From: Patescibacteria group bacterium
Lineage (GTDB): Bacteria > Patescibacteriota > Minisyncoccia > Moranbacterales > UBA2206
Assembly: GCA_022709735.1 (NCBI GenBank)
Contig: JAKLIG010000002.1
Coordinates: 130,028-194,027, forward strand
Reading direction: 5' to 3'
Length of the DNA: 64,000 nucleotides
Part shown: positions 53,460-59,859 of the stretch, one piece after another
How the letters are laid out: each line of letters opens with the position of its first letter
Numbering within the stretch: position 1 is the stretch's first letter
Made by a program: the position numbers and the translations under genes
The notes under the pieces: generated by a model
Told to the model about the DNA's origin: nothing
Database searches by the model: none
The model's input: the letters and a program-made list of their open reading frames with translations, nothing else

Positions 53460-55256
53460 ATGAATACAGATGTCGAAGAAATAAAATCTAGGCTCAATAT
53501 TGTTGATGTTTTGGGCGAATATATCCGACTAGATAAGGCAGGAGCGAACTGGCGGGCTCTCTGCCCTTTTCATAATGAAAAATCGCCCTCTTTTATGGCA
53601 AGTGAAGAAAAACAAATCTGGCATTGTTTTGGTTGCCAGAAGGGGGGAGACATTTTTGGTTTTGTGATGGAAATGGAAGGCTTGGAGTTTCGCGAAGCAT
53701 TGAAAATTCTCGCGGAAAAAGCTGGAGTAAAATTGCAATCATACAGTCCGGAAAAAACAGAAGAAAAAAGCAGAACCTTGGAAATTTTGGAACTTGCTAC
53801 CAAGTTTTATGAAGTGCAACTTTGGAAAGGTGAAGGCAAGGAGAAAATTCTTAAATATTTACATGATCGGGGATTGAAAGACGAAACAATCAAAGAATTT
53901 CGCTTAGGCTATGCGCCGAACGGCTGGCGAAATATGCTAACTTTTTTGACTGGCAGAGGCTTCAAAGTAGAAGAAATAATTAAAACGGGTCTTTTAGTGA
54001 AAAAAGAAAATTCAGGAGATTTCTATGACCGGTTCCGTGATCGGATAATGTTTCCAATCGCAGATTATTCGGGAAAAATTTTAGGCTATAGCGCTCGAGT
54101 GGCGCCAGGTGGAGATGAATCACAGGCAAAATATGTAAATACTCCCGAAACAGAAGTTTATCATAAAAGCCGAGTGCTTTATGGCATAGATAAGGCTCGA
54201 AGTGAAATGAAACAAAAAGACAGCGTCCTTCTTGTCGAAGGCAATATGGATGTGATTGCCTCGCATCAAGCGTGGATAAAAAATACCGTAGCAGTTTCTG
54301 GAACGGCGCTCACGCAAGAACAGATTGGAACAATAAAAAGATATACTAAAAATATTCAAATGTTTTTTGATATGGACAGCGCCGGAGAACAAGCGACAAA
54401 AAAGAGTGTCAAATTATGCCTGGCAAGTGATATGTCAGTAAAAATTGTAAGTTTGGCGCAAGGCAAGGATGCGGCCGATATGGCCAAAGACAATCCGGAA
54501 GAACTTCGAAAAAATGTCGCCGAAGCTTTGCCAGCAATGGAATATTTTTTCCAGAAAACTTTTCAAAAATTTGATAAAAACAAAATTGAAGACAAGAAAA
54601 AAATAACCGAAGAACTTTTGGCGCTAATTTCTAGTTTGGAAAATGAAGTGGAAAAAAATTATTGGATAAAAAAACTGGGAGAAGGGCTGAATATAGCAGA
54701 GTCAGCATTGACGGATGAGTTTAAAAAGATTAGTCTTAAGAGTAAGATTAGAATAAGTGAAAAATCTGAAAATATTCCCGAAAAAAATATTCCTTTAGCG
54801 AAAAAAGAAATGTTAACGCGCGAGCTGATTGGGCTGATGCTTACGAGCAGTTTTGCTTGGAAAAAAGCGGCGGAAGAAGCGCGTGAGGGCAAATTTGATT
54901 TAGAGGATAATCTTTTTAGTTTGATGATTGAAAAAGGAGAAAAGGCAGATTTTGATTTTTCTGTCTTTATGGGTGAAATAGCAGAAAATCGGGAACTTAG
55001 TGAAAAAGCGGAAAAGATTTTTTCCCAGAAGAAATACCGCCTTGATCTTAATAATAATTTAGAAGAAATAGTTGTTGAAGAACCACTCAAAGATTTTCAA
55101 TTGTATGCCAATGAACTTCTAAAAGAGAATAAAAAAGAAGAGCTTAACCGCATAAGCAATGATCTTAGGGTTGCGGAAGAAAGGAAAGACAAAAACGCGG
55201 TAATGTTTCTGCGCCAGGAATTTGATCGAATTTCCAAAGAACTTGCAAAACTATAA
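53460..55256 (+). CDS. dnaG: DNA primase
   Basis: CHC2 zinc finger CPFHNEKSPSF...WHCFGCQKGGD; Toprim LVEGNMDVIA. Confidence 0.9.
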   Translation: MNTDVEEIKSRLNIVDVLGEYIRLDKAGANWRALCPFHNEKSPSFMASEEKQIWHCFGCQKGGDIFGFVMEMEGLEFREALKILAEKAGVKLQSYSPEKTEEKSRTLEILELATKFYEVQLWKGEGKEKILKYLHDRGLKDETIKEFRLGYAPNGWRNMLTFLTGRGFKVEEIIKTGLLVKKENSGDFYDRFRDRIMFPIADYSGKILGYSARVAPGGDESQAKYVNTPETEVYHKSRVLYGIDKARSEMKQKDSVLLVEGNMDVIASHQAWIKNTVAVSGTALTQEQIGTIKRYTKNIQMFFDMDSAGEQATKKSVKLCLASDMSVKIVSLAQGKDAADMAKDNPEELRKNVAEALPAMEYFFQKTFQKFDKNKIEDKKKITEELLALISSLENEVEKNYWIKKLGEGLNIAESALTDEFKKISLKSKIRISEKSENIPEKNIPLAKKEMLTRELIGLMLTSSFAWKKAAEEAREGKFDLEDNLFSLMIEKGEKADFDFSVFMGEIAENRELSEKAEKIFSQKKYRLDLNNNLEEIVVEEPLKDFQLYANELLKENKKEELNRISNDLRVAEERKDKNAVMFLRQEFDRISKELAKL

Positions 55257-55282: not shown

Positions 55283-56596
55283 ATGGCTAAAGCCAAGAAA
55301 AAAAAGAAAAAAATTTCTAAGAAAAAACCTGCTTCCAAAAAACTCAGAAAAAAAGCATCCGTTCGAAGAAAGAAAATCGCTAAGAAAAAAACTAAACTCA
55401 AGCGCAAGGTCAAAAAAGTTTTTCGCAAAAAAAAGCGCGAAGAGAAGAAAGTAAAAAAGATTTCAAAATCGACGGAAGAAAAAAACGCTAAAAGGCGCGA
55501 TGATATTGACGAGTTAGTTTATCGTGGGAAACAGAGAGGTTTTATCACGGAAGACGAAATTTTGCATGCTATTCCGGACGCGGAAAGAGAAATTGAAAAA
55601 TTAGAAGAACTTTATGAAAAGTTGGAAAAGAAAAGTATCCGGGTGATCAATTCTGATGAGATGATACGAATGGAAACGGACAAAATTTCTGAAAATCTGG
55701 ACAAGCAAAAATCCAGCAAGAGAAAAGCAAAAAAAGATACGCTGGATGTTGGCGCTTCCGAGGAAGCTTCCTCGGATCTTGTGCAAATGTATCTTCGGGA
55801 AATCGGCCGAGTAGATCTTTTGAGCACTGAAGAAGAAATATCTTTGGCAAAAAGAATTGAAAAGGGAGATCTTATGGCCAAGCAAAGACTCACTGAAGCC
55901 AACCTTCGCTTAGTAGTGAGTATCGCCAAAAAATATGTTGGAAGATCACACAATCTTTCTCTTTTGGATTTGATCCAGGAAGGAAATATCGGGCTTTTTC
56001 GGGCGGTCGAAAAATTTGATTATCGAAAGGGGTATAAATTTTCTACTTATGCGACTTGGTGGATTCGTCAAGCAGTGACAAGAGCGCTGGCTGATCAATC
56101 TCGAACAATTCGCATTCCAGTGCATATGGTGGAGACAATTAATAAGTATACGCAGGTAACAAGGAGGCTCGTGCAAGATCTTGGAAGAGAACCACTACCA
56201 GAAGAAATCGCAGTGGAAATGGGAATCGAGGTGGATAAAATTCGCCACATTCAAAAAATTTCTCAAGAGACAGTATCGCTGGAAACTTCTGTCGGTGACA
56301 GCGATGATGACAGCGTACTTGGAGATTTTATCGAAGATACAGAAACAGTAATGCCAAATCAAATCGCTTCGAGAAAAATGCTCAAGGAACATGTAGCGGA
56401 AATTCTAAAAGATCTTACCCCAAGAGAACAAAAAATTCTAAAAATTCGTTTCGGCTTGGAAGACGGCGTGACACATACTTTGGAAGAAGTGGGGCAGGAA
56501 TTTGGCGTAACGAGGGAAAGAATTCGGCAGATTGAAGCCAAAGCGCTGGAAAAAATTCGTGATCATGGGACGATCAAAAAGCTTAGAGATTACTAA
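55283..56596 (+). CDS. rpoD: RNA polymerase sigma-70 factor RpoD with a Lys-rich N-terminal extension
   Basis: Region 2 [40 protein letters not shown]; region 4 ...[14 protein letters not shown]... Confidence 0.95.
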
Positions 56597-56620
56597 AAAG
56601 ATATCCACATATCCGCATTT

Positions 56621-56646
56621 GACAAAAAATGTAGGTATGCTAAATT
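56621..56646 (+). promoter_or_regulatory. sigma70-like promoter TTGACA-16-TAAATT driving leader ORF 1 (transcript essentially leaderless)
   Basis: ttgaca(56621-56626) aaaaatgtaggtatgc taaatt(56641-56646); ATG at 56656. Confidence 0.5.
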
Positions 56647-56655
56647 AGCCTTGTT

Positions 56656-56754
56656 ATGAAGAACATGCAAACTAAATTTTATTTTATATTGTCTTTGATT
56701 ATTATTCTGGTCCTCAAGACCGGTCTTGGTTTGCATGAAATGAAAAAGGCATAA
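56656..56754 (+). CDS. 32-codon leader peptide, Ile/Leu/Val-rich (MKNMQTKFYFILSLIIILVLKTGLGLHEMKKA)
   Basis: Frame conserved with the paralog at 57575; three consecutive ATT Ile codons plus Leu/Val codons sit just 5' of the region-1/2 stems. Confidence 0.5.
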   Translation: MKNMQTKFYFILSLIIILVLKTGLGLHEMKKA

Positions 56755-56810
56755 AAGTAAATCCATTTCAAATAAACCAAGGCCGATCTCGTAAAAAGGA
56801 TCGGTTTTTT
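56714..56810 (+). promoter_or_regulatory. transcription attenuator: palindrome 1:2 (CAAGACC/GGTCTTG), antiterminator 2:3 (56718-56732 with 56774-56788, 14/15 bp), terminator 3:4 (CCGATC 56783-56788 / GATCGG 56799-56804 + TTTTTT)
   Basis: Mutually exclusive pairings read directly from the sequence; a U-run follows the terminator. Confidence 0.55.
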
Positions 56811-56826
56811 AGTTCTTTGAGAAAAA

Positions 56827-56881
56827 TTTGATAGCTAAAATAGGGTTTTAATAAATTTAAATCTTTATTTTGGCTATCAAA
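56827..56881. repeat. 15-bp inverted repeat TTTGATAGCTAAAAT ... ATTTTGGCTATCAAA (one G-U) with a 25-nt spacer, between the attenuator and the next SD
   Basis: Read directly. Confidence 0.5.
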
Positions 56882-56907
56882 TAAAACAATTTTAAAGGAA
56901 GGTAATT

Positions 56908-57099
56908 ATGATAATAAATATATTAGATGAAAAAGTAGGTGCGCCAGCTGGAGAATATGATGTATGGGGAGAAGATCAAACAGAAACATTATTATTTCTT
57001 AAACCTAAATCAAAAAAAAGTTGCAGAGAAACCTTATTGTATATAAATAAAATTAATCTGCAATCATTAAAGGATAGAGGAATGATAAAAGTTGACTAG
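56908..57099 (+). CDS. small hypothetical protein (63 aa)
   Basis: Strong SD aaggaagg 5 nt before ATG; no known family. Confidence 0.45.
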   Translation: MIINILDEKVGAPAGEYDVWGEDQTETLLFLKPKSKKSCRETLLYINKINLQSLKDRGMIKVD

Positions 57100-57157
57100 A
57101 AGAGTGTGTGGAGGTATAGCATAAACAAGAAAAGAAAAATAAAAAGGAGAGGCGAAA

Positions 57158-57361
57158 ATGAAGCAAAAGACAGTAGGTGCAGATGAGGATAGCACCCCCG
57201 GGATTAAAAGATCAAAAAACCTGGTGTCTCTTTTTGGCAAAAGAGTGATTCCAGGGGTAAGAGTTATTGGCATAGCAGGGCTCGGAAACGAGGAATCTGA
57301 CGAAAATAATGCAGGAGTGGCAAACTTATCGCCACCTCCTGGCAGAGAACCTTTCTTCTAA
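57158..57361 (+). CDS. small hypothetical protein (67 aa), Gly/acidic-rich C-terminus ending PPPGREPFF
   Basis: Strong SD aaaaggagagg; no known family. Confidence 0.45.
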   Translation: MKQKTVGADEDSTPGIKRSKNLVSLFGKRVIPGVRVIGIAGLGNEESDENNAGVANLSPPPGREPFF

Positions 57362-57528
57362 AAAATGAGAGAAAATCCTCTCGAAAAATTTTGGCAGGGC
57401 CTCGATGTCTACAAGACATTCTATGTCTGATGGGGCTTAACCATAAGCTCCAGTGCCAAAAAAACAAGGGGAAAGGTGACACAATCACTTTTTCCCTTGC
57501 ATCTAAAATCAAATTAAATTTTTATATA

Positions 57529-57556
57529 TTGACAGAATCTCAGCAGATGATAAACT
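57529..57556 (+). promoter_or_regulatory. sigma70-like promoter TTGACA-16-TAAACT driving leader ORF 2
   Basis: ttgaca(57529-57534) gaatctcagcagatga taaact(57551-57556). Confidence 0.5.
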
Positions 57557-57574
57557 GATAAAGTAAAAAAAGAA

Positions 57575-57673
57575 ATGTCAAAACAAACCAGCCAAAAATT
57601 TTATAGCTTTAATTACTTTTATTTCTGGTTTAGCCAGATCGGTTTTGTTTTGCATAAAATGAAAAAAATATAA
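57575..57673 (+). CDS. 32-codon leader peptide, Phe/Tyr/Trp-rich (MSKQTSQKFYSFNYFYFWFSQIGFVLHKMKKI)
   Basis: Same length, same C-terminal motif (LH.MKK.*) and same position relative to the stems as leader 1; 6 Phe + 3 Tyr + 1 Trp codons clustered before the stems. Confidence 0.5.
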   Translation: MSKQTSQKFYSFNYFYFWFSQIGFVLHKMKKI

Positions 57674-57727
57674 GACATTATTCATTTTAGATAAACCAAA
57701 GCCGATCTCACGCGAGACCGGTTTTTT
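57624..57727 (+). promoter_or_regulatory. transcription attenuator, paralog of 56714-56810: 1:2 TCTGG/CCAGA, antiterminator 57635-57651 with 57693-57709, terminator CCGATCTC-acgc-GAGACCGG + TTTTTT (57702-57727)
   Basis: Antiterminator 3' strand overlaps the terminator 5' arm; a compensatory C-G to U-A change relative to copy 1. Confidence 0.55.
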
Positions 57728-57812
57728 AGTTCTTTAAAACAATACACCAAAATTTTAAAATATTTGTTTAAATTACAAAAACACAACAAATAAAAGAAAG
57801 AAAGGAGTACAG

Positions 57813-58709
57813 ATGAGCACACTAATTGAATTTCAAGGATGGAGATTTACTACTTCAAATGTAACGGAAATTTTTTCGAAAGAAGCAGAGGGGCAAGCAA
57901 TCAGTGAGCTAAATAACTGGAAAGGCAATTTTCCGGTTGAAGAAACATGGGTGCAAAGGACTCTTGGTATTCCATCTCTGATTGTTCGCCTAGATTGCGT
58001 TGTTAAAAACGGGAAATTATTAATCTTTGAGATTGAAGAACGTCCCGCTGGAATTGGCGTAACGACCATATTAAATCCAGTTTTTTCCAAAAAATTCAAC
58101 AATTTAAGGAATGGCTGGCCAGAAATTAAATCAGTAGTAACAAAAGAGAGAAGTTCATGCGACGATTATTTATGGACGGAGTGCATCCCTATTGAAGTAG
58201 CTGAAAAAGATGATTGCTTGCTTCTCGTTCGTGCTGAACCGGAAGAAACGCAATTTCATAAATTTGTTTCTCGCTCTGTTAGCACGGTAATTACCAAGGG
58301 CGATAAACAATATGGCAAAGAAATGGGGTTGTGGGAAGAGGTGTCAATAACCGATTTTTATCGATTGCCATGGGATTCTGGATTTTGCTTGAAGCCTCTT
58401 AAGGGCTCAAAATGCAGAAATGTTGAAATCTGGCATCCTATTTTTGCGAAAAAGAAGAGTGGCATAGGTGGCATATCAACAAAATCCCGAATCCAGAAAG
58501 TCTTGGGATCCTATGGCAAGATGTATCTGCAAAAATTTATCGAACCCATGGAAAAACCTGGTGACAAATCCCTAATGATGGCCTATCGAGTTTTTTTTGG
58601 TTATGATTTATCAATCAAAGAGTATAGATATTTAGGTGGCGCTTGGAATGCCAGAGCAAATATTAAAATTCACGGAACACCGGATACTATAATGGGTGCT
58701 GTGAACTGA
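57813..58709 (+). CDS. hypothetical protein (298 aa), no recognised family
   Basis: SD aaaggag; immediately downstream of the aromatic-leader attenuator. Confidence 0.5.
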   Translation: MSTLIEFQGWRFTTSNVTEIFSKEAEGQAISELNNWKGNFPVEETWVQRTLGIPSLIVRLDCVVKNGKLLIFEIEERPAGIGVTTILNPVFSKKFNNLRNGWPEIKSVVTKERSSCDDYLWTECIPIEVAEKDDCLLLVRAEPEETQFHKFVSRSVSTVITKGDKQYGKEMGLWEEVSITDFYRLPWDSGFCLKPLKGSKCRNVEIWHPIFAKKKSGIGGISTKSRIQKVLGSYGKMYLQKFIEPMEKPGDKSLMMAYRVFFGYDLSIKEYRYLGGAWNARANIKIHGTPDTIMGAVN

Positions 58710-58782
58710 TTGGTGTATAATTGCTAGGAGGTGGCTCAAGCCACTTCCTAGCACAATCTAAAAATTTAATTTTAAAATAGCA

Positions 58783-59859
58783 ATGGACAATATAGCTAAA
58801 TTAGCATCAGAATTGATTAAGTTTAAATCAATTAAGGAAAATATTTCAGAAAGAAAAAGAATAGTTTCATTTGTAAAAACACAATTTAAAAATGTTCCTG
58901 TTTTTATAAAGGAATTTGATAAAAATAATAATCCTTCGATAATTATAACTTTAAAAAAAGAAAAATGCCCAAAGATTTTTTTAATTGGGCATCTTGATGT
59001 AGTCCTTGCTAATGATTCACAATTTCAATCTAAGATTAAAGATAAAAAATTGTTCGGAAGAGGCGCGGGTGATATGAAATTAGCAGATGCAGTTATGATA
59101 GAAGTAGTAAAATATTTTGCAAAAAAGAAAAGAAAACTTTCTCTGGGATTGATGTTAACTACTGATGAAGAAACAGGTGGATTTAATGGTGTGAATTTTT
59201 TATTAAATAATAAAAAATATTCTTCAAAGTTGGCGATTATACCTGATGGAGGACCAAATTTAAAAAATATTATAGTAAATCAAAAGGGTGTATTACATCT
59301 AAAGCTAAAATCTTTTGGGATATCAGCACATGCCTCTAGGCCTTTTTTGGGACAAAATGCCATAGATGATTTATATTTAAAATATTTAAAAATTAGAAAA
59401 ATTATTCCATTTACTGAGAAAAATGAATGGAAAGATACCATGAGTCTGGGAAAATTTTATGGCGGGGAAGCAATAAATAAAGTGCCTGATTATGCAGAAA
59501 TGTTTATAGATATAAGATATATAAAGGATAATGGGAAGAAAATAATTTTAAAAAAAATAAGCAACATTGTTAATTGGGAACTTATTTCTCATGGAAAGTC
59601 TCTTGTTCAGAGTACGAAGAATATTTATTTAAAAGAATTTAAAAAATTGTTAAAAAGCGAAACAGGCGATGAAGTTTTTTTCAGCAAGGTTGAGGGCTCT
59701 TCTGACGCAAGATTTTTTTCCGAAAATAAAATTCCTGTTATTATAACAAGAATAAATTGTGGCAATATACATGGTGAAAATGAATGGGGCGATTTGGAAG
59801 AAGCTAATATTTTTCAAGATGTTTTAAAAAAATTTATAAATAAAATTTGTGATCATTAA
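58783..59859 (+). CDS. M20-family metallopeptidase (ArgE/DapE/dipeptidase-like)
   Basis: IFLIGHLDVV...GRGAGDMK...LTTDEETGG metal-binding and catalytic motifs of the M20 family. Confidence 0.7.
   Translation: MDNIAKLASELIKFKSIKENISERKRIVSFVKTQFKNVPVFIKEFDKNNNPSIIITLKKEKCPKIFLIGHLDVVLANDSQFQSKIKDKKLFGRGAGDMKLADAVMIEVVKYFAKKKRKLSLGLMLTTDEETGGFNGVNFLLNNKKYSSKLAIIPDGGPNLKNIIVNQKGVLHLKLKSFGISAHASRPFLGQNAIDDLYLKYLKIRKIIPFTEKNEWKDTMSLGKFYGGEAINKVPDYAEMFIDIRYIKDNGKKIILKKISNIVNWELISHGKSLVQSTKNIYLKEFKKLLKSETGDEVFFSKVEGSSDARFFSENKIPVIITRINCGNIHGENEWGDLEEANIFQDVLKKFINKICDH

Follow-up and report, generated by a model that had tools for sequence, protein, structure and literature searches.

Tandem leader-peptide attenuators and a putative Trp-responsive ligase-hydrolase unit in a Patescibacteria group bacterium

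Results

Locus architecture

All features described in an earlier note were found again at their coordinates within the window, the 64-kb stretch of DNA analyzed here. Two units follow one another on the plus strand: unit 1 (56619-57499) consists of a diverged attenuator copy followed by the small genes ORF63 and ORF67, and unit 2 (57529-59859) of attenuator 2, ORF298, and an M20 hydrolase gene. A scan of both strands of the window for the geometry of leader ORF, terminator, and antiterminator returned attenuators 1 and 2 only, which share 78% identity across a 74-nt core. The analysis supports both attenuators proposed earlier as ribosome-mediated attenuators, each preceded by a promoter-like site. 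The single nested regulatory unit of that proposal gives way to two tandem units with separate promoters. Conservation is limited to unit 2, and the counterpart of unit 1 in the relative L031 stops at a terminator of its own. Transcription probably proceeds in two tandem units, each starting from a separate promoter and passing through a ribosome-mediated leader-peptide attenuator of common design, with unit 2 as a Trp-sensing unit of a ligase and a hydrolase.

Unit 1 opens with the promoter-like site P1 (TTGACA-16-TAAATT, TG-extended; 56619-56646, +), with 10 of 12 matches and a TG before the -10. With the ATG of leader ORF 1 lying 9 nt past this -10, the mRNA would be almost leaderless. Leader ORF 1 (32 aa, MKNMQTKFYFILSLIIILVLKTGLGLHEMKKA; 56656-56754, +) is Ile/Leu-rich and without in-frame Trp, and carries ATT ATT ATT at 56698-56706, 11 nt upstream of the antiterminator arm. 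Antiterminator 1 (56717-56789, +) pairs the arms 56717-56742 and 56764-56789 in a duplex of -23.8 kcal/mol (z -5.8), and its fold reaches -28.3 kcal/mol against -13 for intrinsic terminator 1 (GCCGATC...GATCGG with a U-run; 56782-56810, +). Attenuator 1 is a diverged Ile/Leu-rich attenuator copy with Ile-Ile-Ile as the critical codons within an Ile/Leu run. A similar Ile/Leu leader occurs in L031 at the same relative position, followed by an unrelated orphan ORF.

The promoter-like site P2 (TTGACA-16-TAAACT, TG-extended; 57529-57556, +) of unit 2 likewise has 10 of 12 matches and a TG before the -10. Leader ORF 2 (32 aa, MSKQTSQKFYSFNYFYFWFSQIGFVLHKMKKI; 57575-57673, +) contains a single Trp codon, UGG at 57626-57628, in the aromatic context FYFWF. 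It is followed by antiterminator 2 (57636-57708, +; arms 57636-57666 and 57678-57708) and intrinsic terminator 2 (GCCGATCTC...GAGACCGG with a U-run; 57701-57727, +). Antiterminators range from -20 to -28 kcal/mol versus -12 to -13 for terminators, and the minimum free energy structure of the full-length attenuator is the antiterminated form. A clear 1:2 hairpin, whether for pausing or as anti-antiterminator, was not found in the attenuators, and Rfam yielded a single match, Phe_leader, whose E-value of 2.1 falls far short of the threshold.

Leader peptides in related loci

Leader ORFs were called from ATG starts only, with five extra leaders added by eye. Applied to both strands of 69 unique related loci (815 kb), the geometry scan gave 54 hits. 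Of these, 39 lay no more than 320 nt 5' of the ligase gene, and most others farther upstream on the same strand. An attenuator was present in 43 of the 64 loci with enough upstream sequence, and 36 of those contained Trp. Upstream leader-peptide attenuators, one or two per locus, occur in about two-thirds of loci, and in about a quarter to a third the attenuator is absent. Trp occurred in 40 of 50 geometry-defined leaders (exactly one in 39) and in 50 of 131 control small ORFs, an enrichment with a Fisher p of 4e-7 and a binomial p of 7e-11. The aromatic-Trp motif of leader 2 is common to leaders of about 36-41 related loci, the residues flanking Trp being mostly F, Y, and L. A few leaders, those of L021, L028, L029, L037, and L041, have no Trp and are rich in Leu/Ile or Phe.

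A strong antiterminator duplex is present with 35 Trp leaders, in which UGG precedes the arm by a median of 20 nt (9-30 nt in 32 of 35) and the arm extends as far as the stop codon. The distance from leader stop codon to terminator stem is mostly about 20-30 nt (range 13-47). Antiterminator and terminator arms from the same locus paired at a mean of -21.3 kcal/mol versus -12.0 kcal/mol for cross-pairs, a fit that none of 2000 permutations equalled. The retention of UGG is not explained by base-pairing between its region and the terminator 3' arm. The aromatic-amino-acid sensor suggested earlier is not supported for attenuator 1, where in-frame Trp is missing and Ile-Ile-Ile occupies the critical position. 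A role of attenuator 2, whose leader is conserved with the gene pair across Patescibacteria, as an aromatic, mainly Trp, sensor in direct control of ORF298 and the M20 gene is supported.

ORF63, ORF67, and RNA hairpins

ORF63 (56908-57099, +) and ORF67 (57158-57361, +) both start with ATG and have the strong, near-consensus Shine-Dalgarno sites reported before, with the core GGAAGG of ORF63 at 56897-56902 (5 nt 5' of the start) and AAGGAG of ORF67 at 57144-57149 (8 nt 5' of the start). The ORF67 protein ends in ...NLSPPPGREPFF. ORF63 reached a codon-usage score of 0.237, higher than all 96 spurious ORFs, and ORF67 scored 0.175, the 99th percentile of spurious ORFs, while opposite-strand ORFs scored as spurious. 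Both small ORFs look coding. Searches returned only ORF63 itself among 1.84 billion representatives and only ORF67 itself among 5.8 billion proteins, and ORF63 had no match in Pfam, PHROG, or PADLOC. Neither has a hydrophobic N-terminus or TM segment, and neither co-occurs with the ligase in 82 related loci, which together with the missing homologs speaks against the secreted or precursor peptides that the earlier note saw in them.

Both palindromes of that note are present. The first (56827-56881) is longer than noted, with 26-nt arms (56826-56851 and 56857-56882) that are 85% complementary, and forms a long AT-rich RNA hairpin of 20+5 bp (56826-56882, +) in the 5' UTR of ORF63. As plus-strand RNA it folds at -25.9 kcal/mol (z -8.96; none of 200 shuffles reached this) versus -14.8 kcal/mol on the minus strand, and all of its three wobble pairs are on the plus strand. 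The second (57465-57499, +) is a perfect 15-bp stem in plus-strand RNA, two pairs being G.U, with -21.2 kcal/mol (z -6.3) versus -15.8 kcal/mol on the minus strand. The sequence 3' of it is CAUCUAAAAUC, not a U-run. Each of the two occurs once within the window. The 3' region after ORF67 contains a multi-stem structured RNA (57389-57461, +) that matched no Rfam family, with a folding energy of -55.1 kcal/mol (z -7.75) for 57362-57510. An intercistronic 14-bp RNA hairpin without a U-run (58722-58753, +; -26 kcal/mol, one G.U on the plus strand) lies between the ligase and M20 genes. Six of six imperfect pairs across the three hairpins are G.U on the plus strand and A.C on the minus strand. This strand asymmetry points to RNA stem-loops in plus-strand transcripts and not to the protein operators once proposed, and their roles are probably in stability, processing, or pausing. 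ORF63, ORF67, and the neighbouring hairpins are lineage-specific extras.

Ligase and hydrolase genes

ORF298 (57813-58709, +) encodes a 298-aa protein that, as noted before, belongs to no recognisable family, with no match in Pfam, NCBIfam, or PDB sequences. Its nearest structural relatives are GspS, YgiC, Cp1B, and GSH synthetases, and its motifs are collinear with those of YgiC, the catalytic residues being mapped by motif inspection only. A relation to GspS/YgiC is undetectable by sequence (hhalign probability 3.6%), and the assignment as a ligase therefore rests on the predicted fold. We infer that ORF298 is a minimal glutathionylspermidine-synthetase/YgiC-like ATP-grasp ligase, predicted to join a carboxylate and an amine into an amide at the expense of ATP. 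While this fold is known, the family has no annotation, occurs in Patescibacteria only, and is not a well-known housekeeping family. The protein is Trp-rich (9 W in 298 aa), and several Trp columns show little or no variation when the family is aligned.

The gene directly 3' of it (58783-59859, +) encodes an ArgE/DapE-like M20 metallo-amidohydrolase, in agreement with the M20 peptidase named earlier (Pfam PF01546 at 8.5e-22, M20_dimer at 2e-12). The motifs GHLDVV (69), GRGAGDMK (92), TTDEETGG (126), IPDGG (153), and NIHGENE (328) are present, and its metal-binding and catalytic motifs are shared with PDB 2rb7, an uncharacterised M20/M25/M40 peptidase, and with DapE/ArgE deacylases. The closest solved sequence is 2rb7 (E 2e-39), followed by DapE enzymes at about 1e-15. 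None of the NCBIfam equivalog cut-offs for DapE or ArgE is reached, so neither name can be given to the protein. Of about 58 informative loci, 46 have an M20 gene as the immediate 3' neighbour of the ligase, and no other neighbour, and no third gene, is conserved. M20 is replaced by a class-II GATase (GATase_4) in some relatives, by a class-I GATase/Peptidase_C26 in L023 and L077, and by an AstE_AspA deacylase under the same Trp leader in L015. With M20 exchangeable in this way, the conserved unit is that of ligase and amidohydrolase.

Discussion

In both attenuators, naked RNA is predicted to prefer the long antiterminator helix, the 5' arm of which falls inside the 3' half of the 32-codon leader ORF and ends at its stop codon. 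A ribosome translating smoothly to the stop codon would unwind this arm, the weaker terminator hairpin would form, and transcription would stop, while a ribosome stalled 9-30 nt upstream of the arm would leave the antiterminator intact and the genes would be transcribed. Attenuator 1 would thereby drive two lineage-specific orphan small genes, ORF63 and ORF67. For unit 2, the stall site would be the single, nearly invariant Trp codon in its aromatic context. The arrangement of Trp codon, arm, and stop codon predicts induction when charged tRNA-Trp is scarce, and judged from geometry alone attenuator 2 is predicted to switch unit 2 on under Trp shortage. A Trp-rich ligase is odd for a protein made under Trp shortage, which counts against this main reading, as do the single regulatory Trp codon, the lack of a clear 1:2 hairpin, the loci without an attenuator, and the few leaders without Trp.

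The E. coli trpL, pheL, and ilvL/leuL attenuators likewise have a short upstream ORF with codons of the sensed amino acid, a terminator in competition with an antiterminator that a translating ribosome can mask, a stop codon placed so that an arriving ribosome favours the terminator, and Trp, Phe, and Ile/Leu variants. While classical trp leaders carry two or more Trp codons, there is a single one here. The 1:2 pause/anti-antiterminator hairpin is not evident, so that antitermination is the default of the naked RNA. Further differences are an mRNA predicted to be nearly leaderless, frequent tandem duplication of the attenuators, and control of a ligase/amidohydrolase pair instead of biosynthetic genes.

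An alternative and improbable explanation is that the leaders are ligand- or drug-dependent arrest peptides of the TnaC or Erm-leader kind, in which the aromatic-Trp motif would stall translation from inside the ribosome tunnel once free Trp or a small molecule is present, without tRNA-Trp charging being sensed. Such peptides would fit the single, nearly invariant Trp, the hydrophobic/aromatic context conserved from -3 to +1, and controlled genes that do not serve Trp biosynthesis. However, the distance from Trp to stop varies from 27 to 63 nt with the rest of the peptide unconserved, the C-terminal halves of the leaders track RNA pairing and no peptide motif, and runs of Ile/Leu or Phe replace Trp in variants, as is typical of codon-supply sensing. 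It is unlikely that one or both of ORF63 and ORF67 are non-functional as proteins and that 56810-57500 is a structured non-coding leader or sRNA between ancestral tandem attenuator copies. Their lack of homologs, the strong RNA structure across the stretch, and the gene-less tandem double attenuators common in relatives (L014, L017, L036, L050, L051, L058, and L063) favour this idea; gene-like codon usage above 99-100% of spurious ORFs, correctly spaced Shine-Dalgarno sites, and the spurious scores of opposite-strand ORFs oppose it.

It is very improbable that the region is one nested unit of secreted or RiPP-precursor peptides, operator palindromes, and an ORF298-M20 peptide module. The strong Shine-Dalgarno sites and coding-like codon usage of the small ORFs agree with it, as does a nearby ATP-grasp enzyme, some of which modify RiPPs. 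The small ORFs are nevertheless orphans that never accompany the ligase and lack signal or TM segments, the hairpins are strand-asymmetric, and each unit has its own promoter. A peptide-uptake or degradation module is also at odds with ORF298, whose predicted fold is that of an ATP-dependent carboxylate-amine ligase, neither a transporter nor a degradative enzyme. Rather unlikely, too, is a two-subunit amidotransferase/amidoligase comparable to carbamoyl-phosphate synthetase, in which the hydrolase feeds the ligase, GATases giving ammonia from glutamine and M20 or AstE/AspA a free amine. MurT/GatD is a comparable two-subunit system. Against this, the dominant partner (46 loci) is an ArgE/DapE-type M20, a family for which we know of no glutaminase role, and GATase_4 and Peptidase_C26 include the pure gamma-glutamyl hydrolases EgtC and PuuD. 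Moreover, the nearest structural relatives of the ligase, GspS, YgiC, Cp1B, and GSH synthetases, use organic amines, not ammonia (PMC12568646).

With a Trp-responsive ligase-hydrolase unit as the preferred reading, the replacement of M20 by other hydrolases in other lineages suggests that one kind of amide conjugate is formed by the ligase and cleaved by the hydrolase. The most likely candidate for the bond is an amide of the N-acyl or gamma-glutamyl/succinyl type, carried by an amino compound. Comparable pairs would be the GspSA synthetase/amidase or the protect/deprotect pairs LysX/LysK, PuuA/PuuD, and EgtA/EgtC. The hydrolase here is a separate protein (M20, GATase, or AstE) and not a fused CHAP domain as in GspSA. 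ORF298 is about 70-90 residues shorter than YgiC and has no detectable sequence-family relation to GspSA, the peptide-spermidine ligases YgiC/YjfC, trypanothione synthetase, or fungal Cp1B. In LysX/LysK (ArgX/ArgE) with the carrier LysW, PuuA/PuuD, and EgtA/EgtC, an ATP-dependent carboxylate-amine ligase is combined with a deprotecting hydrolase. LysK/ArgE (M20), PuuD (class-I GATase), and EgtC (class-II GATase) remove the acyl or gamma-glutamyl group later and belong to the superfamilies found as ligase partners here. In contrast to those systems, conserved intermediate enzymes and a carrier protein are absent, and ORF63 and ORF67 are neither conserved nor equipped with a LysW-like acidic C-terminus. 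If a co-transcribed ligase and hydrolase act on one bond, they would run a futile cycle in the absence of an intervening step or of regulated activities, a further point against the preferred reading.

Patescibacteria are generally regarded as lacking amino-acid biosynthesis, and the host organism, an ultra-small bacterium, is probably unable to make Trp or hydrophobic amino acids. The ligase-M20 pair and its leader are widely conserved in Patescibacteria, as a conserved but unstudied ligase-hydrolase pair that may be tied to how Trp or hydrophobic amino acids are acquired or kept in balance.

Two predicted attenuators downstream of rpoD

The first gene in order on the + strand is dnaG (53460-55256), which is followed by rpoD (55283-56596), attenuator 1, a long hairpin, the small genes ORF63 (56908-57099) and ORF67 (57158-57361), and a structured RNA ending in a 15-bp hairpin. 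Further to the right, attenuator 2 precedes ORF298 (57813-58709), an intercistronic hairpin and an M20 gene (58783-59859). All features that an earlier note had listed from this region were recovered where it placed them.

Both attenuators lie on the + strand and begin with a TG-extended promoter-like site with 10/12 matches (56619-56646 and 57529-57556), followed by a leader ORF of 32 codons (56656-56754 and 57575-57673) starting 9 and 18 nt past the -10 hexamer, respectively. The 3' half of each leader ORF serves as the 5' arm of an antiterminator (56717-56742 with 56764-56789 in attenuator 1, 57636-57666 with 57678-57708 in attenuator 2). The 3' arm of this antiterminator shares nucleotides with the 5' arm of a terminator hairpin, which a U-run follows (56782-56810 and 57701-57727). 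Antiterminator energies were -28.3 and -20.2 kcal/mol compared with -13.0 and -12.3 kcal/mol for the terminators, and the minimum free energy structure of the whole leader was the antiterminated form in both cases. Three parts expected of a leader-peptide attenuator, namely an upstream leader ORF enriched in the sensed codons, an intrinsic terminator and a mutually exclusive antiterminator, were present. At the 1:2 position, only a small hairpin of 5-6 bp was found (CTGGTC/GACCGG, 56707-56723, in attenuator 1 and UCUGG/CCAGA, 57624-57638, in attenuator 2).

A scan for this geometry, which required a terminator, a leader ORF stop 10-50 nt ahead of its stem and an antiterminator duplex of significant strength, returned exactly two sites on both strands of the 64-kb window, attenuators 1 and 2. 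Rfam at gathering thresholds identified two tRNAs only and no leader family in the whole window. At E <= 10, matches across 56500-57900 were at chance level, including those of miRNA models to an AT-rich hairpin, and Phe_leader reached 20 bits where 55 are required (E 2.1).

Leader start codons lie 6-18 nt past the -10 hexamer and lack a Shine-Dalgarno (SD) site in the window (56646-56656 and 57556-57575) and upstream of the ligases of the related loci L001 and L031, so that the leader mRNAs would be leaderless or nearly so. A GTTCYTT motif directly 3' of the terminator U-run was seen in 11 of the 50 leaders, among them both window copies (56811-56820 and 57728-57737; TTTTTTAGTTCTTT) and those of loci L001, L031, L034, L036, L041, L051 and L056. 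The motif may lengthen the U-tract or serve as a downstream element for pairing or processing.

Trp leaders in related loci

Scans of genome and metagenome collections for loci with the probable ligase encoded by ORF298 yielded 82 loci, 69 of them unique. Of the unique loci, 64 had 250 nt or more of sequence upstream. Under strict criteria, 43 of these carried at least one attenuator, 36 of them with a Trp leader, and five further leaders just under the strict thresholds were recognised by eye. Two Trp leaders upstream of the ligase were counted by script in ten loci, several of which (e.g., L014, L017, L036, L050, L051, L058 and L063) carry them in tandem without a gene in between. The geometry scan of both strands of 815 kb of relatives gave 54 matches; 39 of these were within 320 nt upstream of a ligase, and most of the others were also upstream of a ligase on the same strand, but further away. 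Terminators within 300 nt of the ligase start numbered 61.

Trp was present in 40 of 50 leaders defined by geometry alone, exactly once in 39, while it occurred in 50 of 131 control small ORFs from the same regions (Fisher p 4e-7); the excess over a 1.4% background had a binomial p of 7e-11. Residues -3 to +1 around the Trp are mainly F, Y and L (e.g., FYFWF, SYLWF, MYFWM, LFIWA). A strong antiterminator duplex is present in 35 of the Trp leaders. Here the 5' arm of the antiterminator follows the Trp codon at a median distance of 20 nt (9-30 nt in 32 of the 35) and ends at the leader stop codon with a median offset of about 1 nt. The distance from stop codon to terminator stem in the relatives is mostly about 20-30 nt, with a range of 13-47. 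Terminator sequences vary highly between lineages, yet each antiterminator arm fits its own terminator, with a mean of -21.3 kcal/mol against -12.0 kcal/mol when arms and terminators of different loci are combined. Among 2000 permutations, 0 matched the real pairing, which amounts to covariation. The antiterminator duplex has a mean z of -5.5 over the 50 leaders. C-terminal halves of the leader peptides (e.g., KRDRFVCVQN in Saccharimonadales) track the RNA pairing and not a peptide motif.

RNA pairing was considered as a general cause of UGG conservation, as the UGG region pairs with the 3' arm of the terminator in both window copies. Across leaders this signal was weak, found in 8 of 40 with a median of -4.25 kcal/mol, and the invariant UGG is therefore best explained as a codon.

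In the mechanism proposed, a ribosome at the leader stop codon would cover the antiterminator 5' arm and let the terminator form. A ribosome stalled at UGG when charged tRNA-Trp is short would sit just upstream of the arm and leave the antiterminator intact, and the antiterminator would also win if there were no translation at all. As the arm would be masked by the ribosome at the stop codon and not by a stalled or absent one, the operon would be off under efficient leader translation and on in Trp shortage. This logic is like that of E. coli trpL, from which the window leader differs by its one regulatory codon, the lack of a clear 1:2 hairpin and its nearly leaderless start. Attenuator 2 is a strong candidate, and in our judgement very probably acts, as a Trp-codon attenuator of a conserved ligase and amidohydrolase operon.

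Attenuator 1 and variant leaders

The earlier note had placed ORF298 and the M20 peptidase under an aromatic amino acid sensor. This fits attenuator 2 with its Trp codon and does not extend to attenuator 1, where the TGG nucleotides are kept, yet out of frame (ATT CTG GTC), and the in-frame peptide is MKNMQTKFYFILSLIIILVLKTGLGLHEMKKA. An ATT ATT ATT run (56698-56706) lies 11 nt before the antiterminator arm, and L031, a locus with a ligase 52% identical, has a similar leader (MKILEQVKTILLSILLVLISRIGFDLCEF) at the same position as attenuator 1. With this in-frame Ile run near the arm and its counterpart in L031, attenuator 1 is read as a putative Ile/Leu-type sensor, a variant of the same design that would not be aromatic. 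Downstream of this leader, L031 has a long hairpin, then an orphan ORF of 101 aa that is unrelated and has a terminator of its own, and after it two Trp leaders ahead of the ligase-M20 pair. A likeness by eye of the 101-aa ORF to ORF67 was unconfirmed by tblastn.

Leu/Ile- or Phe-rich leaders stand directly before the ligase in a few loci (L029, L037, L041, L021 and L028). Phe-run leaders with attenuator geometry were observed in L053 (991-1044) and L029 (8440-8544), with the sequences MKSNAVVFFGFFFTPMI and ...NFFFFYFFY..., respectively, and hint at a wider family of attenuators for various amino acids in Patescibacteria. In L012 (3107-3787), just upstream of that locus's own cassette of Trp leader, ligase and M20 gene, a SLOG cluster-4 (LOG-like) protein has an extra Trp leader in front of it (MLKRNLNFYWFHYASLTGRFLCVVKK), so that the attenuator type controls at least one other gene family. 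The cassettes of three Paceibacterota loci (L002, L004 and L005) have no leader ORF and are preceded by a conserved gene that encodes about 300-325 residues (gene cluster 4). By eye, its product resembles a response-regulator receiver joined to a GAF-like domain, and the gene may represent an alternative control mode.

A predicted GspS-like fold in a new family of probable ligases

ORF298 matches, with 100% identity, a Candidatus Moranbacteria MAG protein annotated as "hypothetical protein", which places the window in a member of the Patescibacteria/CPR. Homology searches gave a family of 69-72 clusters (72 at 90% identity), in which all named clusters are "hypothetical", all taxon-labelled ones are Patescibacteria and none has a Pfam domain. 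The AlphaFold model, based on an alignment of 35 sequences, reached a pLDDT of 94.7 and a pTM of 0.92. Its Foldseek match in the PDB was E. coli glutathionylspermidine synthetase (E 3.5e-7, probability 1.00), with further matches to 3k1t, DcsG and eukaryotic GSH-synthetase-like proteins, which places the fold in the GspS/YgiC-like branch of ATP-grasp enzymes. Known enzymes of amide formation include Cp1B, the ATP-grasp enzyme of E-64 biosynthesis, and the peptide-spermidine ligases YgiC and YjfC (PMC12568646); the RefSeq name of YgiC agrees with this function.

Local alignments of ORF298 and YgiC are collinear at W..PSL..RLD (41-61 and 85-102) and PIF...MxxQxF (208-256 and 302-351). At profile level, 0 Pfam or NCBIfam families, GSP_synth and CP_ATPgrasp included, matched at E <= 1, a PDB sequence search with the family profile found nothing meaningful, and hhalign of the family against YgiC gave a probability of 3.6%. 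The earlier note's remark that the protein belongs to no recognisable family is thus upheld for the sequence, and the family is new at this level, while structure prediction gives it a known fold. Invariant or near-invariant residues (R59, D61, E73, E75, E76, K194, S199, K200, Q240 and R259) lie in motifs that resemble those of ATP-grasp by inspection. The model points to a GspS-like fold with probable carboxylate-amine ligase chemistry, and ORF298 is likely to be an active GspS-like ligase.

The protein is Trp-rich, with 9 W, which is unexpected for an enzyme that would be induced in Trp shortage. Some ligase homologs are longer, 436-474 aa (P0032, P0034, P0038-P0041, P0046, P0053, P0055, P0057 and P0073; loci L007, L010, L013 and L020), owing to some 140-200 additional residues at the N-terminus. 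These match no Pfam family, and the AlphaFold model from 9 sequences had a pLDDT of 51, too poor for a fold search. Two ligase copies occur in tandem before the M20 gene in L028, and L016 has a second copy downstream of the first ligase-M20 pair.

Hydrolase partners of the ligase

An M20 gene lies directly downstream of the ligase in 46 of about 58 loci in which the contig continues. No other conserved neighbours of the ligase were found in the related loci, where all others differ; rpoD was near the ligase in 0 of 82 loci and dnaG in one (L067), upstream on the opposite strand. The M20 metallopeptidase proposed from the sequence proved correct, as the protein has the catalytic domain PF01546 (8.5e-22) and the dimerisation domain PF07687 (2e-12), with the motifs GHLDVV 69, GRGAGDMK 92, TTDEETGG 126, IPDGG 153 and NIHGENE 328 (HxD, D, EE, D, H). 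The nearest solved relative is the uncharacterised 2rb7 (E 2e-39), followed by DapE enzymes at about 1e-15. Equivalence to DapE or ArgE was rejected, since every NCBIfam score was under its cut-off (best 162 bits against 381).

The partner is exchanged in several lineages. In a divergent clade that still has Trp leaders (L024, L025, L026 and L030), the gene after the ligase encodes a class-II GATase (GATase_4, 2.9e-18) starting with MCRLL, in L023 and L077 it encodes a class-I GATase/Peptidase_C26, and in L015 an AstE/AspA-type deacylase lies between Trp leader and ligase. As four unrelated amidohydrolase superfamilies occupy one slot, the selected unit is argued to be "amide ligase plus amide hydrolase".

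The M20, both GATase and the AstE/AspA superfamilies include enzymes that strip amines of gamma-glutamyl, succinyl or acetyl groups, such as LysK, ArgE, DapE, EgtC, PuuD, AstE and aspartoacylase. By analogy, our best guess for the cassette product would be an N-acyl or gamma-glutamyl-type conjugate, formed first and cleaved later, and GspS with its amidase, LysX/LysK, PuuA/PuuD and EgtA/EgtC are proposed as analogous make-and-cleave amide pairs. We put the chance that the two enzymes share one amide conjugate slightly below even. A futile cycle is possible if both are co-induced.

Other peptide- or carrier-based systems were weighed against this pair. In a LysW-type system, a small acidic carrier with C-terminal Glu would be conserved beside a RimK-type ligase and an M20 hydrolase, and a graspetide-type RiPP system would have a conserved precursor peptide beside a graspetide-type ligase; both were rejected, as neither companion was found. 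A defence-system reading of the region was likewise rejected. PADLOC and PHROGs returned nothing for ORF298, ORF63 and ORF67.

The M20 gene in the window has 27% G+C (GC3 0.18) compared with 39% (GC3 0.35) in ORF298 and 28%-43% in the long genes of the window. This low G+C relative to its partner makes a recent replacement of the hydrolase gene possible and fits the partner swapping across lineages. The gene has no obvious SD. Between the ligase stop and the M20 start, a + strand RNA hairpin (58722-58753) with a perfect 14-bp stem of about -26 kcal/mol contains an AGGAGG, which at about 45 nt from the ATG is too distant to be the SD of the M20 gene.

Small ORFs and RNA hairpins

ORF63 and ORF67 start with ATG, are annotated genes in source assemblies and have the near-consensus SD sites that the earlier note described (GGAAGG at 5 nt and AAGGAG at 8 nt, respectively). 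Codon usage was scored by log-likelihood trained on 36 long window genes and compared with real 65-codon fragments and 96 spurious ORFs. ORF63 scored 0.237, at the 62nd percentile of real fragments and above 96 of 96 spurious ORFs, and ORF67 scored 0.175, at the 33rd percentile of real fragments and the 99th of spurious ORFs; ORFs antisense to either scored as spurious. Homologs of ORF67 were searched among 5.8 billion proteins and those of ORF63 among 1.84 billion representatives by exhaustive phmmer, and each matched only itself. Pfam, NCBIfam, PADLOC and PHROGs found nothing in either, both were present in 0 of 82 related loci, and a search of phage genomes with 56810-57530 gave no match. 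They are probably real but orphan genes. The note's proposals of secreted or precursor peptides were not supported, since neither ORF has a signal-like or transmembrane segment (maximum Kyte-Doolittle(15) 0.68 and 1.37) and neither has a homolog; nothing found supports a secreted-peptide, RiPP or carrier-protein role. Co-occurrence with the leader elements in relatives applies to ligase and M20 gene and not to the small ORFs.

Three long stems without a U-run were identified (56826-56882, 57465-57499 and the intercistronic 58722-58753). The inverted repeat noted at 56827-56881 is present, but longer, with arms of 26 nt (56826-56851 and 56857-56882), and folds as a 20+5 bp RNA hairpin (z -8.96, 0 of 200 shuffles as good). 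The stem at 57465-57499 is a perfect 15 bp with two G.U pairs and, as noted earlier, no U-run follows it; the next sequence is CAUCUAAAAUC.

The earlier note had judged the first two to look more like protein operators than terminators. A palindromic DNA operator would be symmetric on both strands, and here pairs and energies favour the + strand: all six imperfect pairs of the three stems (one of them in 58722-58753) are G.U on the + strand and A.C on the - strand, with a chance of about 1/64 under a symmetric null, and fold energies of the + and - strands were -25.9 vs -14.8 kcal/mol for 56826-56882 and -21.2 vs -15.8 kcal/mol for 57465-57499. An RNA-level function in + transcripts is therefore favoured over symmetric operators, for example as 5'-UTR, 3'-end or intercistronic stability or processing elements. 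As no copies of either window hairpin arm were found elsewhere in the window, they are not REP- or MITE-like repeats. The stem at 57465-57499 is preceded by A7 and on the - strand reads as a hairpin with U7, like an intrinsic terminator (57458-57499); there are no leftward genes within 2.4 kb upstream of it. Between ORF67 and this hairpin lies a multi-stem structured RNA without an Rfam family (57389-57461, + strand), and 57362-57510 as a whole folds at -55.1 kcal/mol (z -7.75).

A proposed amino acid-responsive cassette in Patescibacteria

The earlier note stressed the mini-ORFs and palindromes, which are lineage-specific and have little general interest. Leader-peptide attenuation, ATP-grasp ligases and M20 hydrolases each belong to a known kind; what is new is their combination, the restriction to Patescibacteria, the novelty of the ligase at sequence level, the hydrolase swapping, and the Ile/Leu and Phe attenuator variants. 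A full-text literature search found no paper describing leader-peptide attenuators of this type in Patescibacteria or CPR.

Patescibacteria (Candidate Phyla Radiation) are generally regarded as host-dependent amino acid auxotrophs, and to our knowledge it is largely unknown how they sense and respond to amino acid shortage. The Trp-codon attenuator and its two-enzyme cassette provide a concrete regulon, in which the swapping of the hydrolase among four unrelated superfamilies strongly suggests that the biochemical coupling is real and under selection. The structural model additionally gives a fold and a probable chemistry to a family annotated only as "hypothetical". As this family is small, its importance is real but bounded.

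A more speculative reading, which we consider rather unlikely as it stands, is that the cassette is an unrecognised amino acid starvation response, so far in Patescibacteria only, in which shortage of charged tRNA-Trp would induce ATP-driven conjugation and deconjugation to salvage, capture or release Trp or other hydrophobic amino acids. The route would run via a gamma-glutamyl- or N-acyl-type amide, from a host-derived compound. If true, this would be a new metabolic answer to auxotrophy in ultra-small episymbionts, governed by an attenuator family that has spread to other genes and includes Ile/Leu and Phe variants.
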